A stretch of 64,000 nucleotides of DNA from Deltaproteobacteria bacterium (lineage in GTDB: Bacteria > Desulfobacterota > Dissulfuribacteria > Dissulfuribacterales > QOAL01): contig WGDC01000052.1 of NCBI GenBank assembly GCA_015493475.1, positions 11,375 through 75,374 on the forward strand. Reading direction: 5' to 3'. Shown piece after piece: positions 4,650 to 60,039 of the stretch. The notes under the pieces were generated by a model that was given only the letters and a program-made list of their open reading frames with translations, ran no database searches and was not told where the DNA came from. Position numbers and translations under genes: made by a program. Each line of letters begins with the position of its first letter. The first letter of the stretch is position 1.

Positions 4650-4946
4650 TTGGTTTTCAGCCTGATTTCAAGAATCCGTCCCTGATGCTGCAACAACCTG
4701 ATAAATTCATAAGGGAGGTACCATGGTCATTGAAGCGTGATACCAAATTCCAAAAAACTAATCAAGGAAAGGGCTCTTTGCAGAGAGGAGCAGAATGGTT
4801 AAATTCTCATTCAGGTATTCCGTCCCATGGGGTGTCTATGCACCATCTCTCACGAAGTGGGATAATAGCCCAAGACAGTGTACTTATTTCAAGACCTGCC
4901 AAGGGGGCGGAGCAAAGCCATTCGGCATTTCGCTGGAGACAAAGCC

Positions 4947-43803: not shown

Positions 43804-46800
43804 TTATCTCGGCACGAAGACGTCAGGGTCAATCTCAGGGAAAATCGGGTTTGTCCTCTCGATATTTCCAAGCCTGCAAAGATTCGTTTCAGAATCCCTG
43901 TGTTCATCCCAAAAAATTGAGGCGAGAATCCAGAACCGCTCAAGGTCTTCAAAAAAGTATTCCTTCATCCTGTCAACAAAATGACCATTTGATATAACAA
44001 ATGGGATATCACTGTTCATGCTCTGAAGGACCTCCCTGCCAGCCTGGGCCACTATCCGCCTCGCAGTGGCGTCATCGTGGGCACGTTCTTTCCAGTGAGC
44101 CGCCATGGCGGCCAGTTCCCGTATCGCCTCGTGGCTGTGCCTGTACATCCAGGACACGGAGCCGTACATCCACTTGTCGAAGGTCCCCTTGTCACCCCAG
44201 GAAGAAGGATTGAGAAATACCTCCTGGTTTCTCGGATAACGGAAGAGGTAACTGCTCGGGGTTATAAGCTCCGTTTCGTTTTGGTTGTAATAGAACTTTT
44301 TCATCAGGAAGTAGAGAAAATCTATACCCTCGAACCAGTGATGCCCAAAAAGCTCAGCGTCGTACATGGCGACCACTACGGGTTTTTTCCAGAACCAGTC
44401 CTTGATGTACCGAAACCTGAAATTTCTCGATTCCATGAAGTGCTGGGCGTGACGCGCCGCCTTTTCCAGGGCCCACTTACGAACATAGGGCTCCTTGTAA
44501 TCGTTACTCCTTGTTGTTATCCGGTTATAACGAAGCGGGCCTCCCTTGAAATGAAAATCAAGGTAATCCGGATCGCCTGGGTACCCCTCCTCTCCGCTCC
44601 AGACCTGTTTACCTGTTTCTGGATCCCGGGCAAAGGCGGCAACATCACTACCCTTTAAAAACACGGGCGCATGGGTCCCAAATACCACAGGACAGTCAGC
44701 AAGGGTTACCGCATGGGTCTCCGTAAAAAAATAGCGCAAACCCGCCTCTTCCACGAACCTCTCTATTCCGGGAACGTAGGCGCATTCAGGCAGCCAGATA
44801 CCCCTTGGAGCCATGCCAAAGGTAGATTCGTAATCCGACACAGCCGTTTCAATCTGTCCACGTACCGCCCCGGGGCACGGCGTGAAAAAGGGCAGGAAGG
44901 CATGGGTCGCGCCGCATGTAGATATCTCCATGTAACCCTGCTCCTGAAATTTACTAAAGGCCCCTGTAAGGTCGCAGTCATACTTAAGAAAGCAGTCCTT
45001 AATCTCGAGGAACCTGTTCAGGTGCATCCAGGCGGTGTCATGGTAATGCAAGGCCTGCCGCCGGGTCCTGTCCACCTCGGCCCTTGCCAGGTTTATGTGC
45101 GCATCTATATACTTGAGGAACTCTTCCTGAAGAAACGCGCAGCGCATCATATTTGAAAGAGTCGGAGAAATATCCATGGAAACACGGAAATCAACCCCTT
45201 CTGCTGCAAGTTTTTCAAAGGTGAGTATCAATGGGATGTACGTATCCTTTACGGCCTCGTGAAACCATTCCGGCGGATAGCCCATGGGCTGCCAGAAACC
45301 GGATTCACCGTAGGAAACCCTTTTCCTGATGTAGGGGAGATGGGCGTGCAAGTGAAAAATCAGAAGGCCTATGGAATTTTCCGCCGTTCCCATTACGGAT
45401 TCTATCTTCCTGTTGGTTGGATGTCCCCCACTCAGTTTTACCTCCCTGAACTGCAAGGGGTTATTACCGGGCACCACACGGGCGGTCTGGATGGAGTTAG
45501 ACACATCCGTCAAAGACAGGACTTCGCCGCCGGCAACCGCTACGAGCTCTGCCCGATAGACCTTGTCCGGCTCCAGGTTAAGGTACCAGTTATCAGCCAG
45601 ATCGAGGTTCACCTCAACGTCTTCGTGAATCTGGTGGTAAAGCCCGCCTGCCCATTCATGGTATAACTTGATATAGGTCCGCACAGACTGGCCCGTCTTT
45701 TCGCCAAGCCTCCGTAACCTCCCTGGCAGGGAATCCCGGTCGATATGCCAGTAGGCAAAGCCGCGCCTTTCATCCACGGGCAAAAGCACTATGTGATCAG
45801 GCCTTGAGGGCACCGGGCAAAAGGTGGAAGAGATGACCTTCTGGTTTAGACCAGTACCGGCATGACGGACAACGATCGCGGCCTCGTATGCAGCCCCGTC
45901 TTTCACGTTGTGAAAAAGCCAGTCCTTAGCGCCGGGCAAGACCTTGCCGCCATGCTTGGGTAGCCTCCTTGCGCCCTTAGTGGTGAGTTCATGGAGCTCT
46001 ATCTCCACCGCAACATCCTGCCAGTCAAGCCCCTTGGGTATTAGAATCTCTTCGTAAACCCGCCGCCAGTCCCTTTCGGAAATCTCCCACCATGCCCGCA
46101 ACTGCACAGTATCCTCTTCCCACACCTCCCTTTTCAACTCAAAATATCTTGTACCCGCTGGCACACGTACTGTCCCGGAAAAGAGCTCTCCAACCACGTC
46201 GGGTTCCTGGAAATCAAGGCTGAATACGATTTTAAGCACTGTGGGCTCTTCAAGGTCTGCATGAAGCACGCCCGCTTCATCCTTCACGTCCTTTCTCACA
46301 ACCGTAAGGTTTATCTTCCTAAGCTCGCCCATTATTACCGCATAGTCACCTGTACCTGTCCATATCCATTCCTCTATCGGCAGATCCCCACCACCAAAGG
46401 GCCGCCTTATACAATGAACGAATAGGTCCACCTCGTTTTCCCAGTCCAACCTGAATGAACGTTCCACCTCGTTTTTCACTCTCTCCCAGTCTACGTCAGA
46501 CCAGGTTATATGATGCCGCTGGGGATTTTCTGAAACGAAGCTCACCTTGGGCGTGTAATGAAAATCCGTGGACATATACAGCTTGCAGTGTTCCTTTAAC
46601 ACAAGCCTTATTTCAAAATCACCGCTCTCTCCAATATAGAATTCAGTAGAATGGAGATTGGTGCATTTTTTTTCAAGAAGGGGCTGGTCTTCGCCCGGTC
46701 TGAAGACCTGCACCCACAAATCCTCCATGGCCGTATTGACCCTGTCATTCACCTCTCCATCCCACCTGAGATACACGAGGTTCCGAGTAACCTCTATAAA

Positions 46801-46863
46801 GACATGGTCAAAGTGGTAACTATTGCAACGGACCGTGGGCTCAAAAGGTAAAACTGATGACAT
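43804..46863 (-). CDS. GH57 family alpha-glucan branching-enzyme homologue with ~500-aa N-terminal extension
   Basis: LIFHLHAHLPYIR, GIWLPECAY and YDAELFGHHWFEG in the C-terminal half (43804-45375). The N-terminal half holds repeated DUF4912-like modules. Confidence 0.85.
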   Translation of the reverse strand: MSSVLPFEPTVRCNSYHFDHVFIEVTRNLVYLRWDGEVNDRVNTAMEDLWVQVFRPGEDQPLLEKKCTNLHSTEFYIGESGDFEIRLVLKEHCKLYMSTDFHYTPKVSFVSENPQRHHITWSDVDWERVKNEVERSFRLDWENEVDLFVHCIRRPFGGGDLPIEEWIWTGTGDYAVIMGELRKINLTVVRKDVKDEAGVLHADLEEPTVLKIVFSLDFQEPDVVGELFSGTVRVPAGTRYFELKREVWEEDTVQLRAWWEISERDWRRVYEEILIPKGLDWQDVAVEIELHELTTKGARRLPKHGGKVLPGAKDWLFHNVKDGAAYEAAIVVRHAGTGLNQKVISSTFCPVPSRPDHIVLLPVDERRGFAYWHIDRDSLPGRLRRLGEKTGQSVRTYIKLYHEWAGGLYHQIHEDVEVNLDLADNWYLNLEPDKVYRAELVAVAGGEVLSLTDVSNSIQTARVVPGNNPLQFREVKLSGGHPTNRKIESVMGTAENSIGLLIFHLHAHLPYIRKRVSYGESGFWQPMGYPPEWFHEAVKDTYIPLILTFEKLAAEGVDFRVSMDISPTLSNMMRCAFLQEEFLKYIDAHINLARAEVDRTRRQALHYHDTAWMHLNRFLEIKDCFLKYDCDLTGAFSKFQEQGYMEISTCGATHAFLPFFTPCPGAVRGQIETAVSDYESTFGMAPRGIWLPECAYVPGIERFVEEAGLRYFFTETHAVTLADCPVVFGTHAPVFLKGSDVAAFARDPETGKQVWSGEEGYPGDPDYLDFHFKGGPLRYNRITTRSNDYKEPYVRKWALEKAARHAQHFMESRNFRFRYIKDWFWKKPVVVAMYDAELFGHHWFEGIDFLYFLMKKFYYNQNETELITPSSYLFRYPRNQEVFLNPSSWGDKGTFDKWMYGSVSWMYRHSHEAIRELAAMAAHWKERAHDDATARRIVAQAGREVLQSMNSDIPFVISNGHFVDRMKEYFFEDLERFWILASIFWDEHRDSETNLCRLGNIERTNPIFPEIDPDVFVPR

Positions 46864-48073: not shown

Positions 48074-48225
48074 AAACATGCAGGTATTAACCCTCGTAAT
48101 TTACAGCCTTAGACGGTCATGGTGACAGGGGCTGTTTTTATAGAATTTTTGGCGATGTTGCACAACAGGACCTAACGACCTTTGGATGATCTCCCTTGAG
48201 ACCACGGCGGGAATGTGATAACACG

Positions 48226-48265
48226 GAACGCACCCGCAAGGGTGGATAGGTTCGTCTTTTTTATT
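48226..48265 (+). terminator. Intrinsic terminator/attenuator 85 nt upstream of the 48351 gene
   Basis: GAAC-g-CACCC-GCAA-GGGTG-gatag-GTTC hairpin (GNRA loop) followed by TCTTTTTTATTT. Confidence 0.55.
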
Positions 48266-48350: not shown

Positions 48351-49403
48351 ATGGAAAGCATTGAAACCGGAAGTAACGAGGTTAAAGAGGAAAGAGAGGC
48401 GGTTTTCCAGCCGGTTGAACTCGCCATTAAATACCGCCGGCTTGCAGGTAAACGCACCGATTTCATAGAAAAGACCTTCCCCGCCCGTAAGGCCTATTCC
48501 GAGGAACTCAAGCGCGACCTCGACGAGATCATGCAGGCCATCATGGAGGAGGAATCCATGAGCAAGGTCCTCTCCCTACTTGGCACGAAATACGCCATCG
48601 AACGCACCCTGTTGGCAGAAGAACGAAATATCATGGCTGAGGAGAGGAACCTCCTTGGCGAAAAACGAACGCGCCGCTCCAAGATGAGGACAGAGCTTGC
48701 TGAACAGCGCAGCGGGCTTGCCCGTATCAGGACAATGCTGGCCAAGAGCCGGTCCTATCTTGCGGAAAAACGCACCATCATGGCGCAACAGCGGACCGTT
48801 CTGGCCAAGGCCCGCACGGAGCTGGCCTTTATTCGGACAGGCGTTGCCCTGGTAGCCCTCGGCAGCGCATTGATCCGTTACTTTGGGATAGACTGGTGGA
48901 CCATCACGGACGGCACGATACTACTCCTCGGTGTAGTAATGATTGGCCTCGGTATCTACTTTTACCTGAGCCACAGAAAGGAAGAGGCTAACCTGCTCGA
49001 TATCATAAGGCAGAAAGAAGAAGAACTGATGCAGCGCAAACCCCGCATCCTGGTCCTCGATGACGATATGGCCGTCTGCAAGATGCTCAAGATATACTTG
49101 GAAAAGTCAGGATACGACGTAGAGGCCTTCACTAACCCGCATATCGCCAAGCAGCGGCTCGAAGCCGGGCAATTCGACGTGGTAATTACAGACTTGATGA
49201 TGGAGGGGATGACCGGCATTGAAATACTTAAATTGGTAAAACGGCTTTCGCCACAGACCCAGGTTATAATGATTACCAGAATGGATGAACAGTATATCGA
49301 AGAGGTCAAGGACGAACTCTTCGACTATTTTTCAAAACCGGTGGACGTGAAAAAACTGCTATCGAGTGTAAAACGAGCGGTTCAGGAAAGAATATTGGTA
49401 TAG
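48351..49403 (+). CDS. Membrane protein: DUF202 (YidH)-like repeat region plus 2 TM segments plus C-terminal receiver domain
   Basis: ERTxLA-type DUF202 motif repeated. TM segments GVALVALGSALIRYF and LLLGVVMIGLGIYFY. Receiver residues are all present: LVLDDD, VVITDLMMEGMTG, VIMITR, FSKP. Confidence 0.7.
   Translation: MESIETGSNEVKEEREAVFQPVELAIKYRRLAGKRTDFIEKTFPARKAYSEELKRDLDEIMQAIMEEESMSKVLSLLGTKYAIERTLLAEERNIMAEERNLLGEKRTRRSKMRTELAEQRSGLARIRTMLAKSRSYLAEKRTIMAQQRTVLAKARTELAFIRTGVALVALGSALIRYFGIDWWTITDGTILLLGVVMIGLGIYFYLSHRKEEANLLDIIRQKEEELMQRKPRILVLDDDMAVCKMLKIYLEKSGYDVEAFTNPHIAKQRLEAGQFDVVITDLMMEGMTGIEILKLVKRLSPQTQVIMITRMDEQYIEEVKDELFDYFSKPVDVKKLLSSVKRAVQERILV
48600..48851 (+). repeat. 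12 tandem in-frame 21-bp (heptad) repeats encoding x-R-(T/N/S)-x-(L/M)-(A/G/S)-x
   Basis: ERTLLAE ERNIMAE ERNLLGE KRTRRSK MRTELAE QRSGLAR IRTMLAK SRSYLAE KRTIMAQ QRTVLAK ARTELAF IRTGVAL. Confidence 0.85.
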
Positions 49404-49413
49404 GAGATTCAAC

Positions 49414-51978
49414 ATGATCAGATTATGGAAGTCCCTCCACGGGGCAAAAAAGGTAAAAGAAACGGATGCGGAGCAGCGCATCCGGGAAAAATACGAGGCA
49501 TTCATAACCATCCTGTCAGAAAATTCCCATGCCCTCGAGCTTATGACAGACTTGGAAAAGAAATACCTCGACAAGCAGCTAATCAGCATCCCGTACCTGA
49601 AAAACATGGTGCGCAACCTTTCAAAGAGCGTCTGCAACGTCGTTTATAACCTGGAACAGCTGTCTGGCCATAAATACGAGGTATTAAGCGACATATACGA
49701 CAACATAGAAAGGGAAATCCGGCAAATACTTACTGGAAGAAAGGTCCCGGTCTTTACGCCAACGGTTATCCCCATGGACGATATCCGCCGTGAACACATT
49801 GACAAGGTAGGCAGCAAGATGGCCAACCTTGGGGAGCTACGCAACCGCCTCCATATCAATGTCCCTGACGGTTTTGCAATAACAACCTGCGCATACACCC
49901 ATTTCGCCGAGTATAATGACCTGCCTCGCAAGATTTCACGGATTCTGACCGACCTAGACTTTACAAACAGCCAGGACCTACTGCAGGCGGAAAAGGACCT
50001 CAAACAACTCATAATGGAAGCGGAAATGCCTCCTGAACTCGAGGATGCGGTACAGAGCATCAGTTCGAAACTCGAAGAAAAACATGGCCGGGAAATGTTA
50101 TGGGCCGTGCGAAGCAGCGCCATAGGGGAAGACCTTGAAAATTCGTTCGCCGGCCAGTTCTCAAGCATTCTGAACGTGCCAACCGACGAGTTGCTGGAAA
50201 AATACAAGGAAGTAGTCGCCAGCAAGTACAACGCCCGTAACATGCTCTACCAGCGGATGAAGGATATCCGGCCAGAGGACGTCAACATGAGCGTGGGAAT
50301 CATCGAAATGGTCCGTCCGGTATCTTCAGGTGTCCTATATACGGTAGAGCCAATGCGGCCTGCATCCGGGGAGCTAATCATTTCTGCGGTCTGGGGCCTA
50401 GGGCAGCTGCTAGTAGAAGGCGTGATTTCTGCCGACGTGTTTCTAGTCAAGAGGAATAGAGACTTTCCGGTCTCCAAGGAAGAGATCGCCCAAAAGGAAA
50501 TGTACCTTAAATGCGAGGAAAAGGGCGGAGTAAGGCACGTGGAACTATCCGAGGAAGAAGGGAAAAAACCGTGCCTTACCAAGGAACAGATAAAGGTTCT
50601 GGCAAAGACGGGCCTTGAGATAGAGAAATATTTCAAGGCGCCACAGGATATAGAATGGTGTTTTGACCAACAGGGCAACCTGGTCATACTCCAGACCAGG
50701 CCCCTGCATATTATTGACCACAGGCGGCAGAGAAAATACAAGGGTTCTATCAAAGCGCCTGTAATAGTCAACAACGCCAGAATCGTGGCAAGCGGTGTAG
50801 GTGCAGGCCCGGCATGCAAGGTCATGGACATCCACGAGGTGTTCTCGTTTCCTGAAGGGGGAGTGCTGGTGCTGCGAAATTCCTCTCCGCGTTTCATAGG
50901 CGCCCTTACGAAGGCCTCAGCAGTAGTCATTGAGAAGGGAAACCGCACGGACCACATGGCCTCTGTAATCAGGGAGATGAAGGTGCCATGCCTCATAAAG
51001 ATCCCCTCGATCTTTTCGACCCTGCAAAACGGCCAGGAGATAACTGTCGATGCCACCGAAGGGGTAATCTACGAAGGCAGGGTAAACGAACTGCTCGAAA
51101 CAGAGGATATCGAGGTATCCGCCCCTCCCGTAGACGTAACAAAGACGGAATCGTACCGGCTTCTCTCAGGGATTGCGCCTTACATCTTCCCACTCAACCT
51201 TACGGATCCGAGGACCAGCGAGTTTAGGGAAGATGCCTGCAAAACCTGGCACGACATACTGCGTTTCAGTCATGAAACGGCCCTTAACGAGATGTTTCTC
51301 CTAAACCAGAAGGGCAAGATTGACATGGTGAAAAACGTGTACCAGGTCGTATCAAACCTGCCATTCAAGCTCTATGTTTTCGATCTCTTTGGAAATGTGG
51401 TCAAGGGAGAAAAGGGTAGAAAAATTAGACCTGAGAGAATAAAGTCTAAGCCATTCCAGGAACTTTGGCGCGGTATGACCGCCCTTGACGTTTCCTGGAG
51501 TGGGCCCACGAGACAGATGAACGCCAAGGAACTGCTGTCCGCCATGACGCGAACAACAGCCCTTGAGACAAAGGCGGAATATGGCAAGAGTTACGCCATC
51601 GTAACCCCCGAGTTCCTGAATATGAGTCTAAGCATGGGTTACCATTACGTGACCCTGGACTGTTACATATCAAAGGATCCTTACAACAACTACATTTCAT
51701 TATCGTTCAAAGGAGGCGCCGCAGGAGCAAAAAAAAGGCACCTGCGCGTCCTCCTGATAGCTGAAATCCTGAGGCCTCTCGGCTTTGGAGTAACTGTCAA
51801 AAACGACTTCTTAAAGGCCAGGATCAAGGCCGAAACGAGCAAGGAACTCATGAAGATCCTTTACGTGATTGGACGCATGCTAGCCGTAACAAGGTTACTT
51901 GACGTAGCCCTTGAAGATGAAAAAATGGTCGAGGAATGTGCGCATAGATTTTACGAGCATAAGCCCCTTGTAGAATAA
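49414..51978 (+). CDS. PpsA/PPDK-like ATP-grasp + swivel-His phosphotransferase with a non-PpsA C-terminal domain (paralogue A)
   Basis: AVRSSAIGEDLENSFAGQFSSILNV, DIEWCF..LVILQTRP, and swivel GNRTDHMASVIREMKVPCL. The C-terminal ~280 aa lack TIM-barrel motifs. AGGAG lies 8 nt before the ATG. Confidence 0.8.
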   Translation: MIRLWKSLHGAKKVKETDAEQRIREKYEAFITILSENSHALELMTDLEKKYLDKQLISIPYLKNMVRNLSKSVCNVVYNLEQLSGHKYEVLSDIYDNIEREIRQILTGRKVPVFTPTVIPMDDIRREHIDKVGSKMANLGELRNRLHINVPDGFAITTCAYTHFAEYNDLPRKISRILTDLDFTNSQDLLQAEKDLKQLIMEAEMPPELEDAVQSISSKLEEKHGREMLWAVRSSAIGEDLENSFAGQFSSILNVPTDELLEKYKEVVASKYNARNMLYQRMKDIRPEDVNMSVGIIEMVRPVSSGVLYTVEPMRPASGELIISAVWGLGQLLVEGVISADVFLVKRNRDFPVSKEEIAQKEMYLKCEEKGGVRHVELSEEEGKKPCLTKEQIKVLAKTGLEIEKYFKAPQDIEWCFDQQGNLVILQTRPLHIIDHRRQRKYKGSIKAPVIVNNARIVASGVGAGPACKVMDIHEVFSFPEGGVLVLRNSSPRFIGALTKASAVVIEKGNRTDHMASVIREMKVPCLIKIPSIFSTLQNGQEITVDATEGVIYEGRVNELLETEDIEVSAPPVDVTKTESYRLLSGIAPYIFPLNLTDPRTSEFREDACKTWHDILRFSHETALNEMFLLNQKGKIDMVKNVYQVVSNLPFKLYVFDLFGNVVKGEKGRKIRPERIKSKPFQELWRGMTALDVSWSGPTRQMNAKELLSAMTRTTALETKAEYGKSYAIVTPEFLNMSLSMGYHYVTLDCYISKDPYNNYISLSFKGGAAGAKKRHLRVLLIAEILRPLGFGVTVKNDFLKARIKAETSKELMKILYVIGRMLAVTRLLDVALEDEKMVEECAHRFYEHKPLVE

Positions 51979-52170: not shown

Positions 52171-53652
52171 ATGTTTGAACTGATTCCCATGCACATAAAA
52201 AATCATCTCGGCAGAAAGTGTTACATGAAATCCCTGAAGTTCAAGCTGATCTCCAGCTTTACGGTGGTATTTCTGATTACGGCCCTGTCGTCCATCGCCT
52301 CCATTTTTGCCATCTCGAGGGTGGAACATAAGATGCAGGTTATGGAGCATATGCAGCTCATCACTCTCCAAACCTTGCTCGTCCGCCAAAAGGAAAAAAA
52401 TTTTCTGCTCTATGGCAACCTCCGGGAACTTGCAGAAGCCAGGAAACTGCTCGCTACCATAAAGGGACGGATATCAAGGCTTGCCCCGGTGTACATGGAG
52501 GATTTCAAGAATGTGAATGTACTCATGGATTCCTACGAAGGGATAATTGACGAATTTCTTTCTCGAAAGCCAGGCAAATTATCGAAAGACGCCCTCAAGG
52601 CATCCCTTAGACGTCAAGGCCACAAGCTTATGAGCCTGATTCTCAACCGTGCCAATAATCTAAAGGACAGGCTCGAAACACAGATCCTCAGATATAAGGA
52701 GATGTCTTTTCTCCTGCTCTCGGTGGCCATACCAGTCGGTCTCCTCCTGTGCCTTTTTCTATCAGAATGGATCTTGCAGCCAATAGAGTATGTGCGTAAC
52801 CAGGCCATCAACGTGATGAGCGGAAAGATAAAGTCCATTCCCGTTGAACCAATAGCTAACAAGTGCATTGAATGCGACGGCCTAGTGCGTTCCATCAACA
52901 AGATGCTCGATACCATCGAGTCAAAACAACAGCAGCTCATCCAGTCCGAGAAACTTGCCGCCATCGGTAAGGTAATGGCGGGCATAGCTCACGAGATAAA
53001 CAACCCCCTTAACAATATCAGCCTAACCGCAGAGGTCATGCTTGAGGACATGGAAAACATGAGCGAGGAAGAAAGGAGACAGATGATAAACGACATACTG
53101 GTCCAGTCTGAACGCGCAAGGGACATCGTTCATCATCTCCTCCAGTTCTCCAGGATGAAAAAATCAGCCATCCGTGAAAAGGTTGACCTTGCAGAGCTCG
53201 TTGAGAACACCCTGGCGCTCCTGAAAAACGAGCTAAGAATAACCCATACCAAGATCAAGACGACAATAGAAAAGGGGGCGGGAATCATTTACGGCAATAC
53301 CAACCAGTTGCAGCAAGTGCTTGTTAATATTATCCTTAACGCAATCCAGGCTACTGGGGAAGGGGGCAACATAGAAATATGGCTCAAGGTGGATAGGGAC
53401 AAAAATAAGGCCTGCCTGTCCGTGAGGGATAACGGGCCGGGAATACAGCGGGAAGTTCTTAAACACATACTCGAGCCGTTCTATACCACCAAGAAGGACG
53501 GCACCGGGCTGGGGCTATCAGTGAGCTACGGGATAATTAAGGAACACAAGGGCGATATCCATATAGATAGCAAGATGGGTAAAGGCACCACTGTCACCAT
53601 CGAGCTCCCCCTGACAGGAAACAATGAGGACAGCCGCATTGAGAAACAATAA
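52171..53652 (+). CDS. Sensor histidine kinase (2 TM segments, periplasmic loop, HisKA + HATPase_c)
   Basis: H-box AGIAHEINNPLN, N-box NAIQAT, DNGPGI, GTGLGLS. The start may instead be Met 52225. Confidence 0.85.
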   Translation: MFELIPMHIKNHLGRKCYMKSLKFKLISSFTVVFLITALSSIASIFAISRVEHKMQVMEHMQLITLQTLLVRQKEKNFLLYGNLRELAEARKLLATIKGRISRLAPVYMEDFKNVNVLMDSYEGIIDEFLSRKPGKLSKDALKASLRRQGHKLMSLILNRANNLKDRLETQILRYKEMSFLLLSVAIPVGLLLCLFLSEWILQPIEYVRNQAINVMSGKIKSIPVEPIANKCIECDGLVRSINKMLDTIESKQQQLIQSEKLAAIGKVMAGIAHEINNPLNNISLTAEVMLEDMENMSEEERRQMINDILVQSERARDIVHHLLQFSRMKKSAIREKVDLAELVENTLALLKNELRITHTKIKTTIEKGAGIIYGNTNQLQQVLVNIILNAIQATGEGGNIEIWLKVDRDKNKACLSVRDNGPGIQREVLKHILEPFYTTKKDGTGLGLSVSYGIIKEHKGDIHIDSKMGKGTTVTIELPLTGNNEDSRIEKQ

Positions 53653-55030
53653 TTCTAAAAAGATAGACACCTACAGGGTGATGATCCTCGATGACGAGGA
53701 AATAACGGTAAAACGGCTATTGAAAGGGCTTGGTGCGGCCAAGGAGCTAAGGGTGGAAGGCTTTATCCTCGCAAAGGACGCCTTGGAAGAGATGAGAAAG
53801 TCGCCCCCGGACATCATTATCTCGGACATAAAACTGAAGGACGCACATGGCCTCGATCTGATCGATAAAATCAAGGTAAATTCCCGTAACACCCTTATCA
53901 TACTCATGACCGGCTACGCGTCCATAGATCAGGCGGTAAAGGCCACCAAAAAAGGCGCATTTTACTACATAGCCAAGCCTTTTTCCATTAAGGAACTACG
54001 GCAGACCGTTTCAGAGGCTATAGAACTCATCAGATCACGCCGGCAGAGGAACATGATAATCGACCAGTTAGGCCGGGAAGGAAGGCTTGGGGAAATTATA
54101 GGTTCCACCCCGGAGATGCTGCAAATATTCAAGACCATAAAACAGATCGCCCCAATAGACTGCAACGTGCTGATAAAGGGCGAGACTGGAACGGGCAAGG
54201 AACTTGTGGCCAAGGCCCTGCACCTGCACAGCAAGAGAAACAGGCATCCCTTTGTTTCCTTTAACTGTGGGGCCTTTACAGAAGAACTTATCGCAAACGA
54301 GCTGTTCGGACACGAAAAAGGGGCCTTTACCGGAGCCAACTCAACAAAGCTCGGGCTACTTGAAACCGCATCAGGGGGAACCGTATTTCTTGACGAAATA
54401 GGAGAAATGCCCCTGTCCATGCAGGTGAAACTCCTGAGGGTCCTGCAGGAAAACACCATATTCAGGCTCGGAGGAACCACGCCCGTAGGAATAGATTGCC
54501 GCTTCGTGGCCGCTACCAATAGGAATCTCGATAAGATGGTAAGCAAAGGGGCCTTCAGGCAGGATCTCTTTTACAGGCTAAAAGTTGTGACCATCGCCCT
54601 GCCACCCCTGCGAAAGAGGAGAGAAGACATACCTGCCCTAGCTGTCTACTTTGCCAAGAAAGCCGCCAAAAAATTTGGTAAGCCAACCCCAAGAATCGGC
54701 AACGATTTTCTTGACGCCATAGTGGAATATCGGTTTCCAGGCAACTGCAGGGAGTTAGAGCACATGGTGGAAAGGGCCGTGGCACTTAGCCGTGGAAGCC
54801 GGCTGACAACGGAAGACCTGCCGCCTGACCTGTGGCTCCTGCAAGAACCCCAAAAACAGATAAAGGAAACAGCGTCTCTCAGAAAGCTCGAAATCGACTA
54901 TATAATGGATGTTTATAAAAAGACCGGCTTTAACCAGAGTGAGACCGCGCGGATTCTCGGAATATCAAGGACCACGCTTTGGAGAAAACTGCGACGGTTC
55001 AATATAACCTCAAGAAAACAGCTACCCTGA
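53624..55030 (+). CDS. NtrC-family sigma54-dependent response regulator
   Basis: Intact receiver (ILDDEE, IIISDIKL, LMTGY, AKPF), AAA+ GETGTGKE, GAFTGA, FLDEIGEM, and HTH ETARILGISRTTLWRKL. The start may be 53681. Confidence 0.9.
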   Translation: MRTAALRNNNSKKIDTYRVMILDDEEITVKRLLKGLGAAKELRVEGFILAKDALEEMRKSPPDIIISDIKLKDAHGLDLIDKIKVNSRNTLIILMTGYASIDQAVKATKKGAFYYIAKPFSIKELRQTVSEAIELIRSRRQRNMIIDQLGREGRLGEIIGSTPEMLQIFKTIKQIAPIDCNVLIKGETGTGKELVAKALHLHSKRNRHPFVSFNCGAFTEELIANELFGHEKGAFTGANSTKLGLLETASGGTVFLDEIGEMPLSMQVKLLRVLQENTIFRLGGTTPVGIDCRFVAATNRNLDKMVSKGAFRQDLFYRLKVVTIALPPLRKRREDIPALAVYFAKKAAKKFGKPTPRIGNDFLDAIVEYRFPGNCRELEHMVERAVALSRGSRLTTEDLPPDLWLLQEPQKQIKETASLRKLEIDYIMDVYKKTGFNQSETARILGISRTTLWRKLRRFNITSRKQLP

Positions 55031-55055: not shown

Positions 55056-55448
55056 TTAACCTGATGCCCCATTTTTCGCAGCCCGCAGCACTGACTCCTT
55101 CAACTCGCTCAACCTGAAAGGCTTTACCATGAAATCAAAAACACCGTTTTTGAACGCCTCCTTGGCGGTTTCAGGTTTTGCGTAGCCTGTTATAATGATG
55201 ACCTTGGAGTCAGGATTCATCTGTTTCGCCCTGCGTAGGACCTCCATTCCATCCATTTCTTCCATCTTGAAATCTGTAATCACGATATCAAAGGGATTTT
55301 CCTTCATGAACTCAAGAGCAGAAAGGGGATCGGTAAATACCTCCACGTGAAATCCCATCTTGCCAAGGACCTGCTTCAGCCTCCTACCCACAATTGGCTC
55401 GTCATCGATTATTACAGCACGCTGCAGCGCGTCTGACTCATCCGCCAT
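55056..55448 (-). CDS. Single-domain (CheY-like) response regulator
   Basis: VIIDDEPIV, IVITDFKMEEMDG, VIIITGY and MVKPF: all receiver signature residues are present. Confidence 0.9.
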   Translation of the reverse strand: MADESDALQRAVIIDDEPIVGRRLKQVLGKMGFHVEVFTDPLSALEFMKENPFDIVITDFKMEEMDGMEVLRRAKQMNPDSKVIIITGYAKPETAKEAFKNGVFDFMVKPFRLSELKESVLRAAKNGASG

Positions 55449-55560: not shown

Positions 55561-58194
55561 TCACCTGCGTGCAACCTCGTAGTCCCCCCTCAGGAAGGCA
55601 TAAAGATAGTGTTGGATTGCGTCGTCGCTTTCCATGTGGACATCGAGCTGGCGCGTAAAACCGATAAGCCTGCCAAGGATTTCAAGGACCCATTCCAGGT
55701 CTTTCCTATGTATGTTGGTTATTCTTGCCGTAACCACGTCGCCTTTCATCTTCACATTAAGGTCATAGGTCCTGAGTATCTCCCCAATAAGCCTCGCACG
55801 CCTGGATCTCTTTATTATGTCAGTGGCACCGCCGAGGAACCGGAAGTAGACATGGTTGTCCCTTGGAACATCACTGCAGTATGCATCCACAATATTGAAG
55901 TGATAACCGAAACGCAGACTGAGGTTCACGTATTCCTTAGTTATTATAGCAATGTTATGGCCCGAGTACTGGCCATCGAGGGCATCGGTAGGCGCATTTA
56001 TCATGCTGGTAACCACGTCCCTGAAACCTACTTCCATAATATCGGTGTGCCAGACCCCTGGGGTCATCATGCCGTGGAGCAGGGCCTTGAATGGAATGGA
56101 TTCGATGTGCTTGAACTCGCAGTGATCCTCCGGGGCGTCCATGGATATCCCTCCCCCGAGATCAACGCAAAGAATGCCAGCCGGGATCGGCAGGTCGAGC
56201 CTCTTGGTGATAAGCCCTTTCAAGAGCCTGTTTTGATCCTTGCCAAGGTCGATGAGCTCCTTGACTGCCTTCTCATGAATAAACCGCAATATGTCATGAT
56301 AGGTCTCGCACTTGTCTATGCTGAAATCTTCTATCAGAGGATCAACAAGGTTAAGACGGGAAACCTCCCTCAGAAGCCTTCTAAGGAGCCGGAAGTCACC
56401 TGATTCAAAAACATTCATCTGCTGGCAGCTTCGGTATACAAGGAGCTCCCTTACCTTGCCCTTGTATATCTTCCTTTCCTCAGCGTCCACCGTGACTTCC
56501 ATTCCGTCATGCACTTTGGACAGTATACCCTTGACATTCACAAGACAAGGAACGCACAGCTCTCGGCAGATAGTCGACATGTGGCTGACCGGCGTGCCCA
56601 CCTCGGTAACTATAGCAGATACCTTCTTCATAATCTGCACAAACAGGGACATGTCCCTGGGGCTCACAAGCACCGCCCCCTCGGGGACATCCCTGAAATC
56701 CTGTATATTCCTTACTATTTTGACCGGTCCGTACCCGATGCCCTGCTGCGCTGTCCGCCCCTCTCCACTCGAAATGACCTCGTACTTATCATCAAGATTC
56801 AGGAGTGAGCGTTCGATTACCTGGGTCTCCGTCACAAGCAGCGCCCTGGATTGGAGAACCAGGACCCTGTTCCTGACACCTACCGCCCATTCCACATCCT
56901 GTGGATGCTTGAAATAGTTTTCCAGCTTTATTCCCATCCTGCCAAGCTCAAGCAGTTGCTCACCACTGAGACAGGGTTTGTCCTGGAGATCTTCCGGTAT
57001 AGGCCTCTTTTCCAGGCCTCCCTTTGAACTTAGGTACAGGCCCTCCCTTTTCCTGACTATCTTTTCCTCTATCACTTTGACGCCATCCTTCTTGGAAATT
57101 CTGAAGGAATCCGTGGGCATCTTTCCATCAACAACTGCCTCACCCTGTCCCCAGTTCGCAACCACCACCATGTCATCAGAAGCCGGATCTAACGGATCCG
57201 TGGTATAAAGCACGCCGCTGCTCCTTGCGTCAACCATTATCTGGCAAAGGGCCGCTATGGACATCTGTCCCTCTCCTTCAAGCACCGTGCGCCTGTATTC
57301 GATTACGTGCTTACTGAAAAGACTGGCGATTACCGTCTTATAGGCTGAAAAAATATCTTCTGGACCAGGCTCAACATTGAGTACCGAGTCAAACTGCCCG
57401 GCAAAGGAAAAATCCATGTCCTCTTCCTGGGCGCTGCTTCTGACCGCAAATCTCGTCCTCTTACCAACTTGATCCTCGATCCTGTTCACGGCCTCTCCGA
57501 TGTCCTCAAGAAGCTGCGGGGGTGGTTTTATGGAAGAAATGGCCTGTTGGAGTTCCCGCCTCACCTTCTCTATCTCCACGGCGTCTGCATGGGGACAGGC
57601 CAGAAAGCCCTCGAGCCTGTCCACCTTGGAGACAAGCCTGTTGTAAGCAATAACATCGTGGTATGCCCTGGTGGTGACTACGAATCCATCGGGAACCGAA
57701 AGTTCAAGATCGTTTATTATCTTCGCGAGGTGCAAGGCCTTACCTCCGATCACAGGGTATTCGGCCTTTGTTATCTCGTTAAGGAGTATGACAGGGGGAC
57801 CCTGACGGTCTTGCCTACCTTTAAGAATCTGGAAGAGCCTGTCGTGAATGTTGTCATATACCTCGTACAACTCTGTATACCTATTATCGCACAGGGCATT
57901 TAGGTTATGCACGCACTTGAGGACGGTCTCGGACAGTTCGTCCAAGGTGGTCTCTATGTAGTGCCTGTCAAACAAGTAGTCCCCGCTCAGCTTCTCTCCC
58001 ATATCAGCAATAATCTCGAGGGCAGACTGGTTGCAATGCAACACCTTTTTGAAACGTTCGAATTTCTGCCTAATGGCGGAAGCGGTTACAGGCGGCGCCC
58101 CAGTAAAGGTCTTTTTTATCCTGTCAACAAGCCCTTGAAAAAAGTCCACGTTTGAAGGTCCTCCACTCCCCAAAAACCCCTGCTTGATTTTCAC
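55561..58194 (-). CDS. PpsA/PPDK-like ATP-grasp + swivel-His phosphotransferase with a non-PpsA C-terminal domain (paralogue B)
   Basis: AVRSSAQEEDMDFSFAGQFDSVLNV, DVEWAV..LVLQSR, and swivel GTPVSHMSTICRELCVPCL. The C-terminal domain is collinear with paralogue A. GTG start; the true start is uncertain. Confidence 0.8.
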   Translation of the reverse strand: MKIKQGFLGSGGPSNVDFFQGLVDRIKKTFTGAPPVTASAIRQKFERFKKVLHCNQSALEIIADMGEKLSGDYLFDRHYIETTLDELSETVLKCVHNLNALCDNRYTELYEVYDNIHDRLFQILKGRQDRQGPPVILLNEITKAEYPVIGGKALHLAKIINDLELSVPDGFVVTTRAYHDVIAYNRLVSKVDRLEGFLACPHADAVEIEKVRRELQQAISSIKPPPQLLEDIGEAVNRIEDQVGKRTRFAVRSSAQEEDMDFSFAGQFDSVLNVEPGPEDIFSAYKTVIASLFSKHVIEYRRTVLEGEGQMSIAALCQIMVDARSSGVLYTTDPLDPASDDMVVVANWGQGEAVVDGKMPTDSFRISKKDGVKVIEEKIVRKREGLYLSSKGGLEKRPIPEDLQDKPCLSGEQLLELGRMGIKLENYFKHPQDVEWAVGVRNRVLVLQSRALLVTETQVIERSLLNLDDKYEVISSGEGRTAQQGIGYGPVKIVRNIQDFRDVPEGAVLVSPRDMSLFVQIMKKVSAIVTEVGTPVSHMSTICRELCVPCLVNVKGILSKVHDGMEVTVDAEERKIYKGKVRELLVYRSCQQMNVFESGDFRLLRRLLREVSRLNLVDPLIEDFSIDKCETYHDILRFIHEKAVKELIDLGKDQNRLLKGLITKRLDLPIPAGILCVDLGGGISMDAPEDHCEFKHIESIPFKALLHGMMTPGVWHTDIMEVGFRDVVTSMINAPTDALDGQYSGHNIAIITKEYVNLSLRFGYHFNIVDAYCSDVPRDNHVYFRFLGGATDIIKRSRRARLIGEILRTYDLNVKMKGDVVTARITNIHRKDLEWVLEILGRLIGFTRQLDVHMESDDAIQHYLYAFLRGDYEVARR

Positions 58195-58253: not shown

Positions 58254-59012
58254 TTAATGACTTCCCCCGCCCTTAAAGACCATCCCGACTCCGAAACCTG
58301 CAACTATAGCAACAACGAGGGCTATAATACCGTAAAGGGCCGGTTTCTCGAACGCCATGTGGGTAAGCTGCCTTATGAGCCCTACCCTTTCCACCTTGAT
58401 ACTCGTTTGGGCCTTGTCGATCACCTGTCCGTTTTCCACTGCAAAGGCCTGAACCTGGTAATCCCCTGGCGGGGCCTCAAATGGCCAGTTAACCTCAATG
58501 GAAAACGTGTGGTTCTCCTTGTCTATATGGACAACCCCGTCTTCCTCGTCATAAAGCTGATCTTCCTCCATGAATTTAAGGAATTCCAGTATCCACTTGT
58601 CCCTGTCAAGGTCCTTCATCTTGGTCTTGATCCGCACCTTGTCGCGCAAGGCATCATACCCTATGGACAATTGCCTGCATGCCTCTTGAGGAAGTATATT
58701 GTGCATGTCCCTTGTTGAATATACGAGATACACCTTGGGCACGTCCTCGAAGACGATATTGCCAAGCTTCATCCAGAATATGCCTCCAGCCTTGCCCTTG
58801 TACTTGAGGTGTTCTTCACCGAGCTTGGAGTGTATCTGGATTATTATGTCAGGGGCGTTAAGCCCCTTACCCCGGATGGTTATAGTAGTGCCATGATAAC
58901 CGATGGTTATTGGAATCTTTTCCGGGTTAGCCTCCACCGTCAGTGCCCATGCCCTGCCAAACGAACAAACAACAAGAAGGGCAATCAAAACCATGGCCGC
59001 CTTTATCATCAT
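58254..59012 (-). CDS. Secreted protein with C-terminal TM anchor, TIGR02186/'Alph_Pro_TM'-like (tentative)
   Basis: Signal peptide MMIKAAMVLIALLVVCSFGRAWA and C-terminal TM LYGIIALVVAIVAGFGVGMVF. Encoded directly after a TauE/SafE gene, the usual partner of this family as I recall it. AGGAGG precedes Met 59012. Confidence 0.5.
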   Translation of the reverse strand: MMIKAAMVLIALLVVCSFGRAWALTVEANPEKIPITIGYHGTTITIRGKGLNAPDIIIQIHSKLGEEHLKYKGKAGGIFWMKLGNIVFEDVPKVYLVYSTRDMHNILPQEACRQLSIGYDALRDKVRIKTKMKDLDRDKWILEFLKFMEEDQLYDEEDGVVHIDKENHTFSIEVNWPFEAPPGDYQVQAFAVENGQVIDKAQTSIKVERVGLIRQLTHMAFEKPALYGIIALVVAIVAGFGVGMVFKGGGSH

Positions 59013-59029
59013 ATCGATCCTCCTCATGA

Positions 59030-59992
59030 TTAATGCCCTCCCCCATGTGCAAGCAGCAAGGATGGCTCAAGCACGAGTCCGAGGATCATCTTCAGGGTCA
59101 CCCCGAGAACGATCATTGCGAGCAAGATTTTAAGCTGGTCACCGTGAAGCTTCTTGCCGAGCTTTGTCCCCACCTGGGCCCCAATGGTCGAGCCGAGAAG
59201 TAAAAGTATGGCGAGGATAATATCAACGGTATGGTTCTGGTAAGCCTGGAGAAACGTCACCTCCACGCACGTGAACATAATTTGGAAAAGGCTCGTTCCG
59301 ACAACGACGTGCATGGGCATTCGAAGCAGATAAATCATCACCGGAACCATGAGAAATCCACCACCCACTCCCATGATTGCAGCGAGCACGCCAACGAAGA
59401 TACCAAGGCCCACGGGCAGGATGGCAGAGTGACTTACCCCAGACTTTTCAAAGTAAATCTGAAAGGGAAGCGAAGCGATGATCCCCTTTTTCTTCACCTT
59501 GGCCCTTGCCTTCTTCCTTGCCTTCCTTTCGGCCTCCATGCGCTCTTCCTCACTCAGAAGCGCAACGGCCCTCTGTTTCTTTATGGCATGGAGGCTTTCA
59601 AAGAACATGAAGGCCCCCACGACGCCGAGCATAATCACGTAGGTTATCTTTATTAGAAAGTCAGCCCCTCCTGTTGCCCGTAGCACCTTTATCACGTGGA
59701 CTCCAAGTGCACCGCCGACAAACCCTCCCACGAGAAGCAGCAGGCCCATTTTGAAATCCACATTCCCAAGCCTCCAGTGGGCAAGAGTCCCCGAGGCAGA
59801 AGCAGCCACGATTTGGTTTGCATCAGTGGCCGCAGCCACGGTTGGAGGAATCCCTATCATCATTAGCAGGGGCGTCATAAGAAACCCTCCCCCAACGCCA
59901 AACAGGCCGGAAAGCAGGCCCACCAACAGGCCAAGGCCTACCACCAGCAGCAAATTTACGCTTGTCAGCGCAATCGGTAAGTAGATATACAT
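59030..59992 (-). CDS. TauE/SafE (DUF81) family anion exporter
   Basis: Two-fold repeated polytopic protein with GVGGGFLM(T/V)P in both halves and a charged central loop. Start at ATG 59992, 6 nt after GGAGGG. Confidence 0.8.
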   Translation of the reverse strand: MYIYLPIALTSVNLLLVVGLGLLVGLLSGLFGVGGGFLMTPLLMMIGIPPTVAAATDANQIVAASASGTLAHWRLGNVDFKMGLLLLVGGFVGGALGVHVIKVLRATGGADFLIKITYVIMLGVVGAFMFFESLHAIKKQRAVALLSEEERMEAERKARKKARAKVKKKGIIASLPFQIYFEKSGVSHSAILPVGLGIFVGVLAAIMGVGGGFLMVPVMIYLLRMPMHVVVGTSLFQIMFTCVEVTFLQAYQNHTVDIILAILLLLGSTIGAQVGTKLGKKLHGDQLKILLAMIVLGVTLKMILGLVLEPSLLLAHGGGH

Positions 59993-60039
59993 ATTCAACC
60001 CTCCTGTAAAAAATAACTTCTAAGGCCCGTTACCCTTGT

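Follow-up and report, generated by a model that had tools for sequence, protein, structure and literature searches.

Why should a response regulator carry, immediately ahead of its membrane segments, a long row of the heptad that canonical DUF202 proteins bear only three times? The question is posed by a gene at positions 48351..49403 (forward strand) of a 64,000-nucleotide stretch of DNA from a sulfate-reducing Deltaproteobacteria bacterium (contig WGDC01000052.1 of assembly GCA_015493475.1, positions 11,375 to 75,374), hereafter called the window. As judged from its open reading frame (ORF), its Pfam matches and about 90 orthologue clusters, the gene encodes a membrane-anchored response regulator of 350 amino acids (aa) with the domain order N-terminal helical head, 12-heptad array, DUF202 hairpin of two transmembrane (TM) helices, and receiver. 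From its sequence the product appears to be a DUF202/VTC-type module in which the pore-helix motif is greatly extended and which is fused to a receiver, an arrangement that is real, ancient and conserved.

DUF202/YidH proteins are very widespread, yet to our knowledge the family is understood only in the polyphosphate channel of the eukaryotic VTC, and its bacterial members have no known function. The locus gives a testable idea for such a function. An initial annotation of the window had described the array and had proposed that it could form an oligomerisation rod or a lipid-contact rod whose state is set by the receiver. An oligomerisation rod under receiver control is a reasonable idea; the homology to the Arg/Lys rings that line the VTC pore, and the partner gene for an enzyme resembling phosphoenolpyruvate (PEP) synthase, go beyond that annotation.

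The heptad array and its conservation

Residues 84-167 (48600..48851, + strand) split without gaps into 12 heptads of the form xR[TNS]x[LMV][AGS]x, exactly as first listed: ERTLLAE, ERNIMAE, ERNLLGE, KRTRRSK, MRTELAE, QRSGLAR, IRTMLAK, SRSYLAE, KRTIMAQ, QRTVLAK, ARTELAF and IRTGVAL. Arg at position 2, T, N or S at position 3 and A, G or S at position 6 are found in 12 of 12 units, while position 5 is hydrophobic in 11 of the 12 and position 4 in seven. The observed in-register run of R[TSN] is 12, whereas the same protein, shuffled 20,000 times, gave runs of at most 3 (reached in 8 cases). At the nucleotide level no repeat was detected in the array by Tandem Repeats Finder (minimum score 30), and the Arg codons vary from one unit to the next. 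The copies are therefore old at this level, which bears out the initial view that they do not stem from recent slippage. Testing the array for a 6+6 duplication gave a similarity of 8.15 at offset 6 versus 8.46 at offset 1.

A search of 5.8 billion proteins yielded about 90 clusters whose members are 344-404 aa long and share this architecture, and across which the reading frame is kept and the 12-heptad span stays in the same register. Fifty-three orthologues, 49-86% identical to the window protein, were aligned for residue-level comparison. All 53 have exactly 12 units, no insertion column occurs over aa 70-232, and Arg occupies 613 of the 636 cells at position 2. Mean column entropy is lowest at position 2 (R; 0.20 bits) and rises over positions 6 (A/S/G; 0.62 bits), 3 (T/S/N; 0.63 bits), 5 (L/M/V; 0.67 bits), 7 (E/K/Q; 0.79 bits) and 1 (E/K/I/Q; 0.91 bits) to the variable position 4 (1.15 bits). 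Since each heptad retains its own identity in the orthologues, as seen for xRSGLAR with its invariant Gly, KRTxMAQ, QRTFLAK and ARTELAF, the units of the array are not interchangeable.

Invariant Gly residues stand at position 4 of two heptads, the sixth (xRSGLAR, G122) and the twelfth (IRTGVAL, G164). G164 marks the entry into the first TM helix (TM1); G122 may be a mid-array hinge or the relic of an earlier TM1 start.

The degree of conservation bears on the trivial explanation that the frame is untranslated or that the periodicity is a matter of compositional chance. Short ORFs do lie on the opposite strand at 48494-48745 and 48576-48788, but frame, length and motif are kept in orthologues at 49-86% identity, the Pfam domains on both sides are in frame, and the shuffles never exceed a run of 3. 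We regard the probability of an artefact as negligible.

In a scan of one genome per species the family was found in 29 genomes, all of them Desulfobacterota (Desulfobulbaceae, Desulfobulbales and Desulfobacterales). The sole isolate among them is Desulfopila sp. IMCC35006 (locus L029; NZ_SWCM01000002.1, match at 4001-5026).

Predicted structure and receiver domain

AlphaFold2 (AF2), run on the alignment of the 53 orthologues, gave a model with a mean predicted local distance difference test (pLDDT) score of 83. In this model aa 70-178 form a single unbroken helix of 109 residues, with block-mean pLDDT values of 80-93 over the array and no kink at the junction between array and TM1. The array is therefore best described as the cytoplasmic continuation of TM1, in agreement with the earlier observation that the last heptad, IRTGVAL, runs directly into that helix. 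A five-residue loop, a helix of aa 184-227 and a standard receiver fold follow. TM1 covers approximately aa 159-178 (48825..48884, +; hydropathy peak at 159-175) and is continuous with the array, and TM2 covers approximately aa 184-207 (48900..48971, +; hydropathy peak at 190-206). The helix that begins with TM2 reaches residue 227 and thus makes up most of the cytoplasmic linker between TM2 and the receiver (aa 208-231; 48972..49043, +), a segment conserved in the orthologues as KEEG.LL..IRQKEEELM. The receiver is cytoplasmic and is separated from the array by two TM helices, which places the array in the cytoplasm, too.

The N-terminal region (aa 1-83; 48351..48599, +) gave no Pfam match at E<0.05. 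It is modelled as helices 7-27 and 35-66, the latter separated by three residues from helix 70-178 (block-mean pLDDT about 81-91).

The receiver (REC) domain (aa 232-349; 49044..49397, +), with acceptor D281, was assigned by Pfam, Foldseek and residue inspection. Response_reg (PF00072) matches aa 233-340 with an E value of 1.9e-23 over model positions 1-110 of 111, and a Foldseek search with the full-length model returned receiver-domain matches only, the top matches being receivers, and gave no information on the array. The catalytic quintet D237, D238, D281, T309 and K329 is complete, so the domain is intact, as had been proposed. K329 and S/T309 are present in 53 of 53 orthologues and D281 in 48.

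Relationship to DUF202 and the VTC channel

The Pfam DUF202 match (PF02656) extends over aa 148-207 (48792..48971, +) and comprises the last three heptads, TM1, a short loop and TM2. It scores 28.1 bits against a gathering cutoff of 23.4 (E 2.7e-6; model positions 1-64 of 68). As expected of the family, the motif QRTVLAK ARTELAF IRTGVAL enters TM1 and is followed by the TM1-loop-TM2 hairpin. The third TM helix of YidH and Vtc1 is absent, the protein having two hydrophobic segments and a receiver that begins 25 residues past TM2; the Pfam model itself spans TM1-TM2 only.

For comparison, the sequences of yeast Vtc1 and E. coli YidH were scanned with Pfam, and both were confirmed as DUF202. The model starts at R148 in the window protein, at K24 in Vtc1 (E 1.9e-17) and at R13 in YidH (E 2.8e-19). 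From these start points, canonical DUF202 proteins possess three heptad positions, the third of them inside TM1, and not one or two motif copies as the initial annotation had it. The window protein carries nine extra heptads upstream of the canonical three.

The counterparts of these positions in yeast have been visualised by cryo-electron microscopy. The DUF202 domains of three Vtc1 subunits, Vtc3 and Vtc4 form a pentamer whose pore is lined by five TM1 helices (10.1101/2023.01.27.525886; PMC9911596). At its cytoplasmic mouth, K24 and R31 of Vtc1, with their equivalents in the other subunits, make up two positive rings, 7 residues apart, where phosphate ions bind, and a 'positively charged belt' brings polyphosphate from the VTC polymerase to the pore (10.1101/2023.01.27.525886; PMC9911596). 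As R148 and R155 correspond to Vtc1 K24 and R31, the Arg of the array heptads is homologous to a residue that lines the pore.

When a profile built from 36 diverse modules with arrays was compared with the sequences of the PDB, four Vtc1 entries came out on top (E 0.015-0.034), in alignments that span 60 residues and set Vtc1 R31 on R155 of the window protein. This link is marginal and agrees with Pfam. A phmmer search of the PDB with aa 1-232 gave only spurious matches to ribosomal protein uL6 (E about 0.03). Pfam detected no SPX or VTC/TTM domain in the window protein or its neighbours; the protein is therefore not a member of the VTC, although its membrane module is homologous. In the searchable literature nothing was found on bacterial DUF202 function, on the repeat or on this gene set.

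Packing of the array helix

At 3.5 residues per turn the heptad positions lie at -154 (position 4), -103 (position 1), -51 (Leu5), 0 (Arg2), +51 (Ala6), +103 (Thr3) and +154 degrees (position 7). Arg thus sits in the middle of the conserved face, flanked on one side by a bulky pair of positions (Leu5 and position 4) and on the other by a small pair (Ala6 and Thr3). In a ring of n helices the neighbours are met at +/-(90-180/n) degrees, that is at 45, 54 and 60 degrees for n = 4, 5 and 6. Owing to the unlike flanks, the helix is suited to cyclic head-to-tail packing and not to a two-fold dimer. On a straight alpha-helix a stripe with a period of 7 residues drifts by 20 degrees per repeat, or by about 220 degrees over the array; given the strict heptad period, which is free of stutters, left-handed supercoiling round a common axis is to be expected.

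The initial annotation had suggested coiled-coil and structure predictions. The monomer gave the single helix described above, but no canonical left-handed coiled coil with an a/d seam was found: position 5 alone is consistently hydrophobic, Arg and Glu/Lys/Gln stand 3 and 4 residues away from it, and the seam is polar. The array does not resemble an ER/K single alpha-helix either, since its 84 residues contain no opposite-charge pairs at i+3 and three at i+4. An isolated array helix would not be self-stabilised by charge pairs, and it therefore needs partner helices. Polar heptads of a different kind are known from trimeric autotransporters, where N(d)T polar-core heptads place a polar residue and Thr at the axis and bind one chloride per layer (PMC13580157).

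We tentatively prefer the reading that the array forms a cyclic, probably pentameric, supercoiled bundle whose stacked Arg rings guide or gate a polyanion under the control of the receiver. The array would be a cytoplasmic, in-register extension of the pore-lining TM1 of a DUF202/VTC-type module. Chains, most likely five, would pack head-to-tail in a supercoiled ring and so build a stalk about 12 nm long, with an axis lined by 12 stacked Arg rings. The stalk would run on into the membrane pore and amount to a built-in version of the VTC-like 'positively charged belt'. It might bind, guide or gate a polyanion, either phosphate or a polyphosphate-like polymer, or else fix the pore helices in an open or closed register. 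Phosphorylation of D281 would alter the packing of the rings via the helix that connects TM2 and the receiver.

The charge and geometry of the helix also bear on the lipid-contact option of the initial annotation, by which the array would be an amphipathic rod on the inner leaflet with Arg and Thr binding anionic head groups. The whole array has a net charge of +10, and this charge is graded: in the 53-orthologue alignment heptads 1-3 and 5 carry about -1 each and heptads 4, 6, 7, 9 and 10 about +2. The overall charge, the value of about +2 for each membrane-proximal heptad and the direct run into TM1 would suit a lipid-contact rod. Such a rod nevertheless fits poorly, because Arg is placed mid-face between Leu and Ala and not at a polar/apolar boundary or the edge of a hydrophobic face, and because each heptad has only one reliably hydrophobic position. 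The strict heptad period, with the supercoiling that it implies, would be needless for a surface helix, AF2 shows no kink between array and TM1, and the distal heptads are acidic. On balance we consider this option quite improbable.

Arrays in related proteins and the 3+2 operons

With aa 1-232 as query, HMMER was run exhaustively against 1.84 billion representatives and returned 424 proteins at E<=1e-3; among the matches listed, arrays of 3-20 heptads precede 2-TM DUF202 hairpins. When the search was seeded with a stand-alone long-array protein, at least 843 clusters (90% identity) were obtained at E<=1e-5. Their members belong to Desulfobacterota, Acidobacteriota, Nitrospirae, Thermoleophilia/Actinobacteria and Proteobacteria, and their annotation goes no further than DUF202 or YidH. 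When only the longest array of each protein is counted, lengths peak at 6 and 12 heptads and reach a maximum of about 20 (P0293-P0391, P0121-P0266), which hints at a quantum of 6 heptads (42 residues) in array length. The repeat number, for which a count per lineage had been suggested, is thus fixed at 12 in the orthologues but ranges from 3 to 20, with modes at 6 and 12, in the wider DUF202 clade. The architecture, too, is less singular than the initial annotation held: it is that of a conserved Desulfobacterota family and not a one-off, and multi-heptad arrays are the norm in a large clade, albeit one that is uncharacterised and so does not constitute a known, characterised DUF202 subfamily.

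Five loci contain pairs of overlapping genes in which 3 + 2 = 5 array/DUF202 modules are encoded, four of them in Desulfobacterota (L035, 7001-9989; L036, 7001-9968; L037, 3386-6227; L039, 6001-8896) and one in Thermoleophilia (L044, 6001-8293). The three-module genes specify 6+5+5 heptads and the two-module genes about 5+6 (5+8 in L039, 4+6 in L044). The second gene of each pair carries an MshEN-like domain, and all five operons continue with a HAMP histidine kinase and a receiver. A pyruvate phosphate dikinase (PPDK)-like enzyme, of the family to which the partner of the array gene belongs, is encoded directly next in L037 and L044. In L035 and L036 a set of TauE, Alph_Pro_TM and enzyme genes is located just upstream; its receiver is visible in L035, while the L036 locus ends within the enzyme gene.

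The 3+2 total matches the VTC pentamer of three Vtc1, Vtc3 and Vtc4, and it is the best available evidence, albeit indirect, on the number of subunits. The gene pairs look like covalently linked pseudo-pentamers of an uncharacterised system. Cyclic di-GMP was considered as an input of the MshEN-fused relatives but is not claimed here, as a pattern search found the canonical 24-residue motif to be absent (P0094-P0112, P0121, P0147, P0150).

The fused receiver of the window protein is 42-47% identical to the stand-alone receivers of the 3+2 operons, 38% identical to the receiver of a paralogous enzyme/receiver pair described below, and 26% identical to the NtrC-type receiver of the same locus. 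In view of this kinship the window protein is best understood as one DUF202 module, its array doubled in length, that has been fused to the receiver of the system. By the Rosetta-stone argument, that the two parts are fused here and encoded by separate genes in related operons, the receiver would act on the membrane module.

Stand-alone DUF202 proteins with long arrays and no fused receiver also occur. One with more than 16 heptads is encoded among TauE, Alph_Pro_TM, PPDK-like and receiver genes, whereas one from Desulfomonilaceae has neither a receiver nor a PPDK-like gene as neighbour. The gene for P0109, on a short contig, adjoins an integrase gene, and that for P0295 a CLC channel gene.

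The PEP-synthase-like partner

Ten nucleotides past the array gene begins the gene for a co-conserved PEP-synthase-like protein of 854 aa (49414..51978, +). Across the orthologue loci a PPDK-like gene is found directly 3' of the array gene in approximately 31 of 34 cases, down to 49% identity, while the other neighbours vary. The isolate Desulfopila sp. IMCC35006 differs from nearly all of its metagenome-assembled relatives in having no PEP-synthase-like gene within 4 kb downstream; its enzyme may be encoded elsewhere in that genome.

The partner protein has an unassigned N-terminal region of about 115 aa and, by Pfam, a PPDK_N domain of the ATP-grasp type as well as a phospho-His swivel domain; a conserved C-terminal domain of 295 aa follows (51091-51975). 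The latter has no relative by Pfam, PDB-sequence or Foldseek search. AF2 models it as a mixed alpha/beta domain (pLDDT 76), and the best Foldseek match has an E value of 0.01 and TM-scores of 0.21 (query-normalised) and 0.34 (target-normalised). A true PEP synthase was ruled out as the identity of the partner: the NCBIfam PEP-synthase model gives 351 bits, below its cutoff of 598, and covers only positions 6-475, the N-terminal two-thirds of the model, and the C-terminal PEP/pyruvate TIM barrel (PEP-utilizers_C) is lacking. If the array forms the Arg-lined bundle that we prefer, this phospho-histidine enzyme would belong to the same machine, as an activity that is controlled by it or as the source of phosphorylated cargo.

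Alternatively, the array could be a regulatory docking platform in the cytoplasm for its own receiver or for the partner enzyme, which phosphorylation of the receiver would release or capture; the function would then be autoinhibition or scaffolding and not conduction. Array and receiver are indeed on the same side of the membrane, given the two TM helices between them, and their fusion here, as opposed to separate genes in related operons, speaks for a physical or functional link between the two; the pairing with the PPDK-like gene is strict. Long arrays are found, however, in stand-alone DUF202 proteins that have no fused receiver, and one would not expect a docking surface to consist of one motif repeated strictly every 7 residues. 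We think a docking platform rather unlikely.

A possible conduit or stalk

Several points weigh against an Arg-lined conduit. The ring, its subunit number and the inward orientation of Arg are inferred from the VTC and from helical-wheel geometry, and outside Pfam the sequence link to Vtc1 is marginal at the E values given above (0.015-0.034). We know of no precedent for a 12-nm lumen that contains 60 Arg residues, for which counter-ions would be needed. In 5 of 53 orthologues the acceptor D281 is replaced by Gly while K329 and S/T309 are kept; phosphorylation therefore cannot be a universal switch, and some lineages appear to carry a pseudo-receiver on the same array/DUF202 scaffold. TM3, which the two-helix module of the window protein lacks, contributes to the subunit interface of the VTC (10.1101/2023.01.27.525886). 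Moreover, the exchange K24A/R31A in Vtc1 raised VTC activity in vitro (PMC9911596), and so passage does not simply depend on these rings. Beside the array gene, neither a polyphosphate kinase gene nor another gene for polyanion synthesis was seen. Finally, the acidic distal heptads (heptads 1-3 and 5) fit an Arg-Glu zipper, or closed bundle, equally well.

This last point leads to another explanation, in which the array is a structural stalk or ruler: a closed coiled coil of the polar-zipper type, where Arg of one helix pairs with Glu or Gln of its neighbour. Binding no ligand, it would serve only to oligomerise the protein and to keep the head (aa 1-83) about 12 nm off the membrane, for instance to dock the PEP-synthase-like partner. 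A length fixed at 12 units, with no indels in 53 orthologues, is what one would expect of a spacer. The distal three heptads and heptad 5 are net acidic, and the Glu residues that prevail at positions 1 and 7 of the distal heptads could offset Arg between helices. The short gap between AF2 helices 35-66 and 70-178 is compatible with, though no proof of, a head-proximal bundle of the distal heptads, and the want of an adjoining gene for polyanion metabolism is equally in keeping with a stalk. A near-invariant Arg plus Thr at every turn would be needless for a spacer, however, and the best-conserved residues are those that line the VTC channel. In addition, the proximal heptads are net +2 and have few acidic partners, and array length varies from 5 to 20 units in related families with the same membrane module. 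A mere stalk is the main rival, to which we assign a rather low probability, while the guiding or gating bundle remains our preferred, if tentative, reading.

A still bolder proposal, which we judge improbable, is that the system is a bacterial counterpart of the VTC. The PEP-synthase-like enzyme, with its novel C-terminal domain, would produce or deliver a phosphate polymer or another phosphorylated polyanion, a pentameric DUF202 channel with a 12-nm Arg tunnel would thread this cargo through the cytoplasmic membrane, and the receiver would take the place of SPX as the switch. If this were true, bacterial DUF202/YidH proteins would receive a first function, as anion or polyanion channels, and the 3+2 gene pairs would be covalently linked pseudo-pentamers.

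Gene neighbourhood

About 2.8 kb downstream of the array gene lies a gene for a histidine kinase (HisKA + HATPase_c by Pfam; 52171..53652, +). It is not a conserved neighbour in the orthologue loci, and its product is a candidate phosphodonor in this genome only. The gene is overlapped by one for a sigma-54-dependent response regulator of the NtrC type (53624..55030, +; Pfam). On the opposite strand follow the genes for a stand-alone receiver of 130 aa, a paralogue of the fused receiver with 38% identity (55056..55448, -), and for a second PEP-synthase-like protein of 862 aa that is 33% identical to the partner over its full length (55561..58149, -). Upstream of this second enzyme/receiver pair are genes for Alph_Pro_TM and TauE membrane proteins (58254..59998, -). 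The set TauE-Alph_Pro_TM-PPDK-like-REC recurs near array-bearing DUF202 genes, namely in L035 and on the P0125 contig; the copy in L036 is cut within the enzyme. No relevant literature was found on PPDK_N in connection with a response regulator, or on Alph_Pro_TM.

In the intergenic region upstream of the array gene no Rfam match was obtained, and a sigma-70 promoter scan found no site. A hairpin, CACCC-GCAA-GGGTG, with a T-run about 14 nt later, is located at 48225-48262 (+), roughly 100 nt 5' of the start codon. It has no Rfam match and was not called by the terminator scan; it may mark where an unannotated transcript from upstream ends, or be of no significance. Further upstream, at a distance of about 1.5 kb, a divergent gene (43804-46863, -) encodes a 1019-aa protein with DUF4912, GH57 and 1,4-alpha-glucan branching enzyme C-terminal domains, which is an unusually long GH57 branching-enzyme-like fusion.

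Significance and comparison with known systems

In the bacterial proteins a motif of the VTC channel mouth is multiplied 12-fold here and up to about 20-fold elsewhere, and it is tied to two-component signalling and, by gene linkage, to a phospho-histidine enzyme of an unusual kind. Behind this there may be a regulated conduit for anions or polyanions of a new type, and with it a new output class for response regulators. If the array were only a stalk, protein designers could still take an interest in it as an unusual Arg-cored coiled coil.

The closest system for comparison is the transmembrane domain of the yeast VTC (Vtc1, Vtc3, Vtc4; Pfam DUF202; PDB 7YTJ, 8I6V). Both share the Pfam family, the (E)RTxLAW-type motif at the cytoplasmic start of TM1, and basic residues 7 apart (Vtc1 K24/R31, corresponding to R148/R155) which in the VTC line the channel mouth. 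In both, a cytoplasmic signalling domain is joined to the membrane module, and the five-module stoichiometry of the VTC is echoed by the bacterial 3+2 gene pairs. The window protein differs by having two TM helices instead of three, twelve basic positions instead of two rings, and a two-component receiver as regulator; SPX and TTM polymerase domains are absent. Its associated enzyme is PEP-synthase-like, and its location is the bacterial cytoplasmic membrane.

With E. coli YidH and ordinary bacterial DUF202 proteins the window protein has in common a heptad motif that enters TM1 (YRFSLAN ERTFLAW IRTALGF in YidH), whereas those proteins possess three heptad units, three TM helices and no signalling domain. 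YidH itself is an unconfirmed candidate from a screen for D-alanine export (PMC10299036). The resemblance to trimeric autotransporter coiled coils, in which an axis-facing polar residue followed by Thr recurs in heptads, is one of analogy only: there is no homology, the residue is Asn and not Arg, and those coiled coils are trimeric, extracellular and not membrane-spanning. The multi-module DUF202 operons, finally, share with the window protein the heptad arrays directly before each 2-TM hairpin, receivers of the same clade (42-47% identity) and the enzyme family (31-33% identity over the full length). They differ in that their arrays have about 5-6 heptads per module instead of 12, their modules are concatenated in one chain, their receiver is a separate protein and an MshEN/T2SSE_N-like domain is present.

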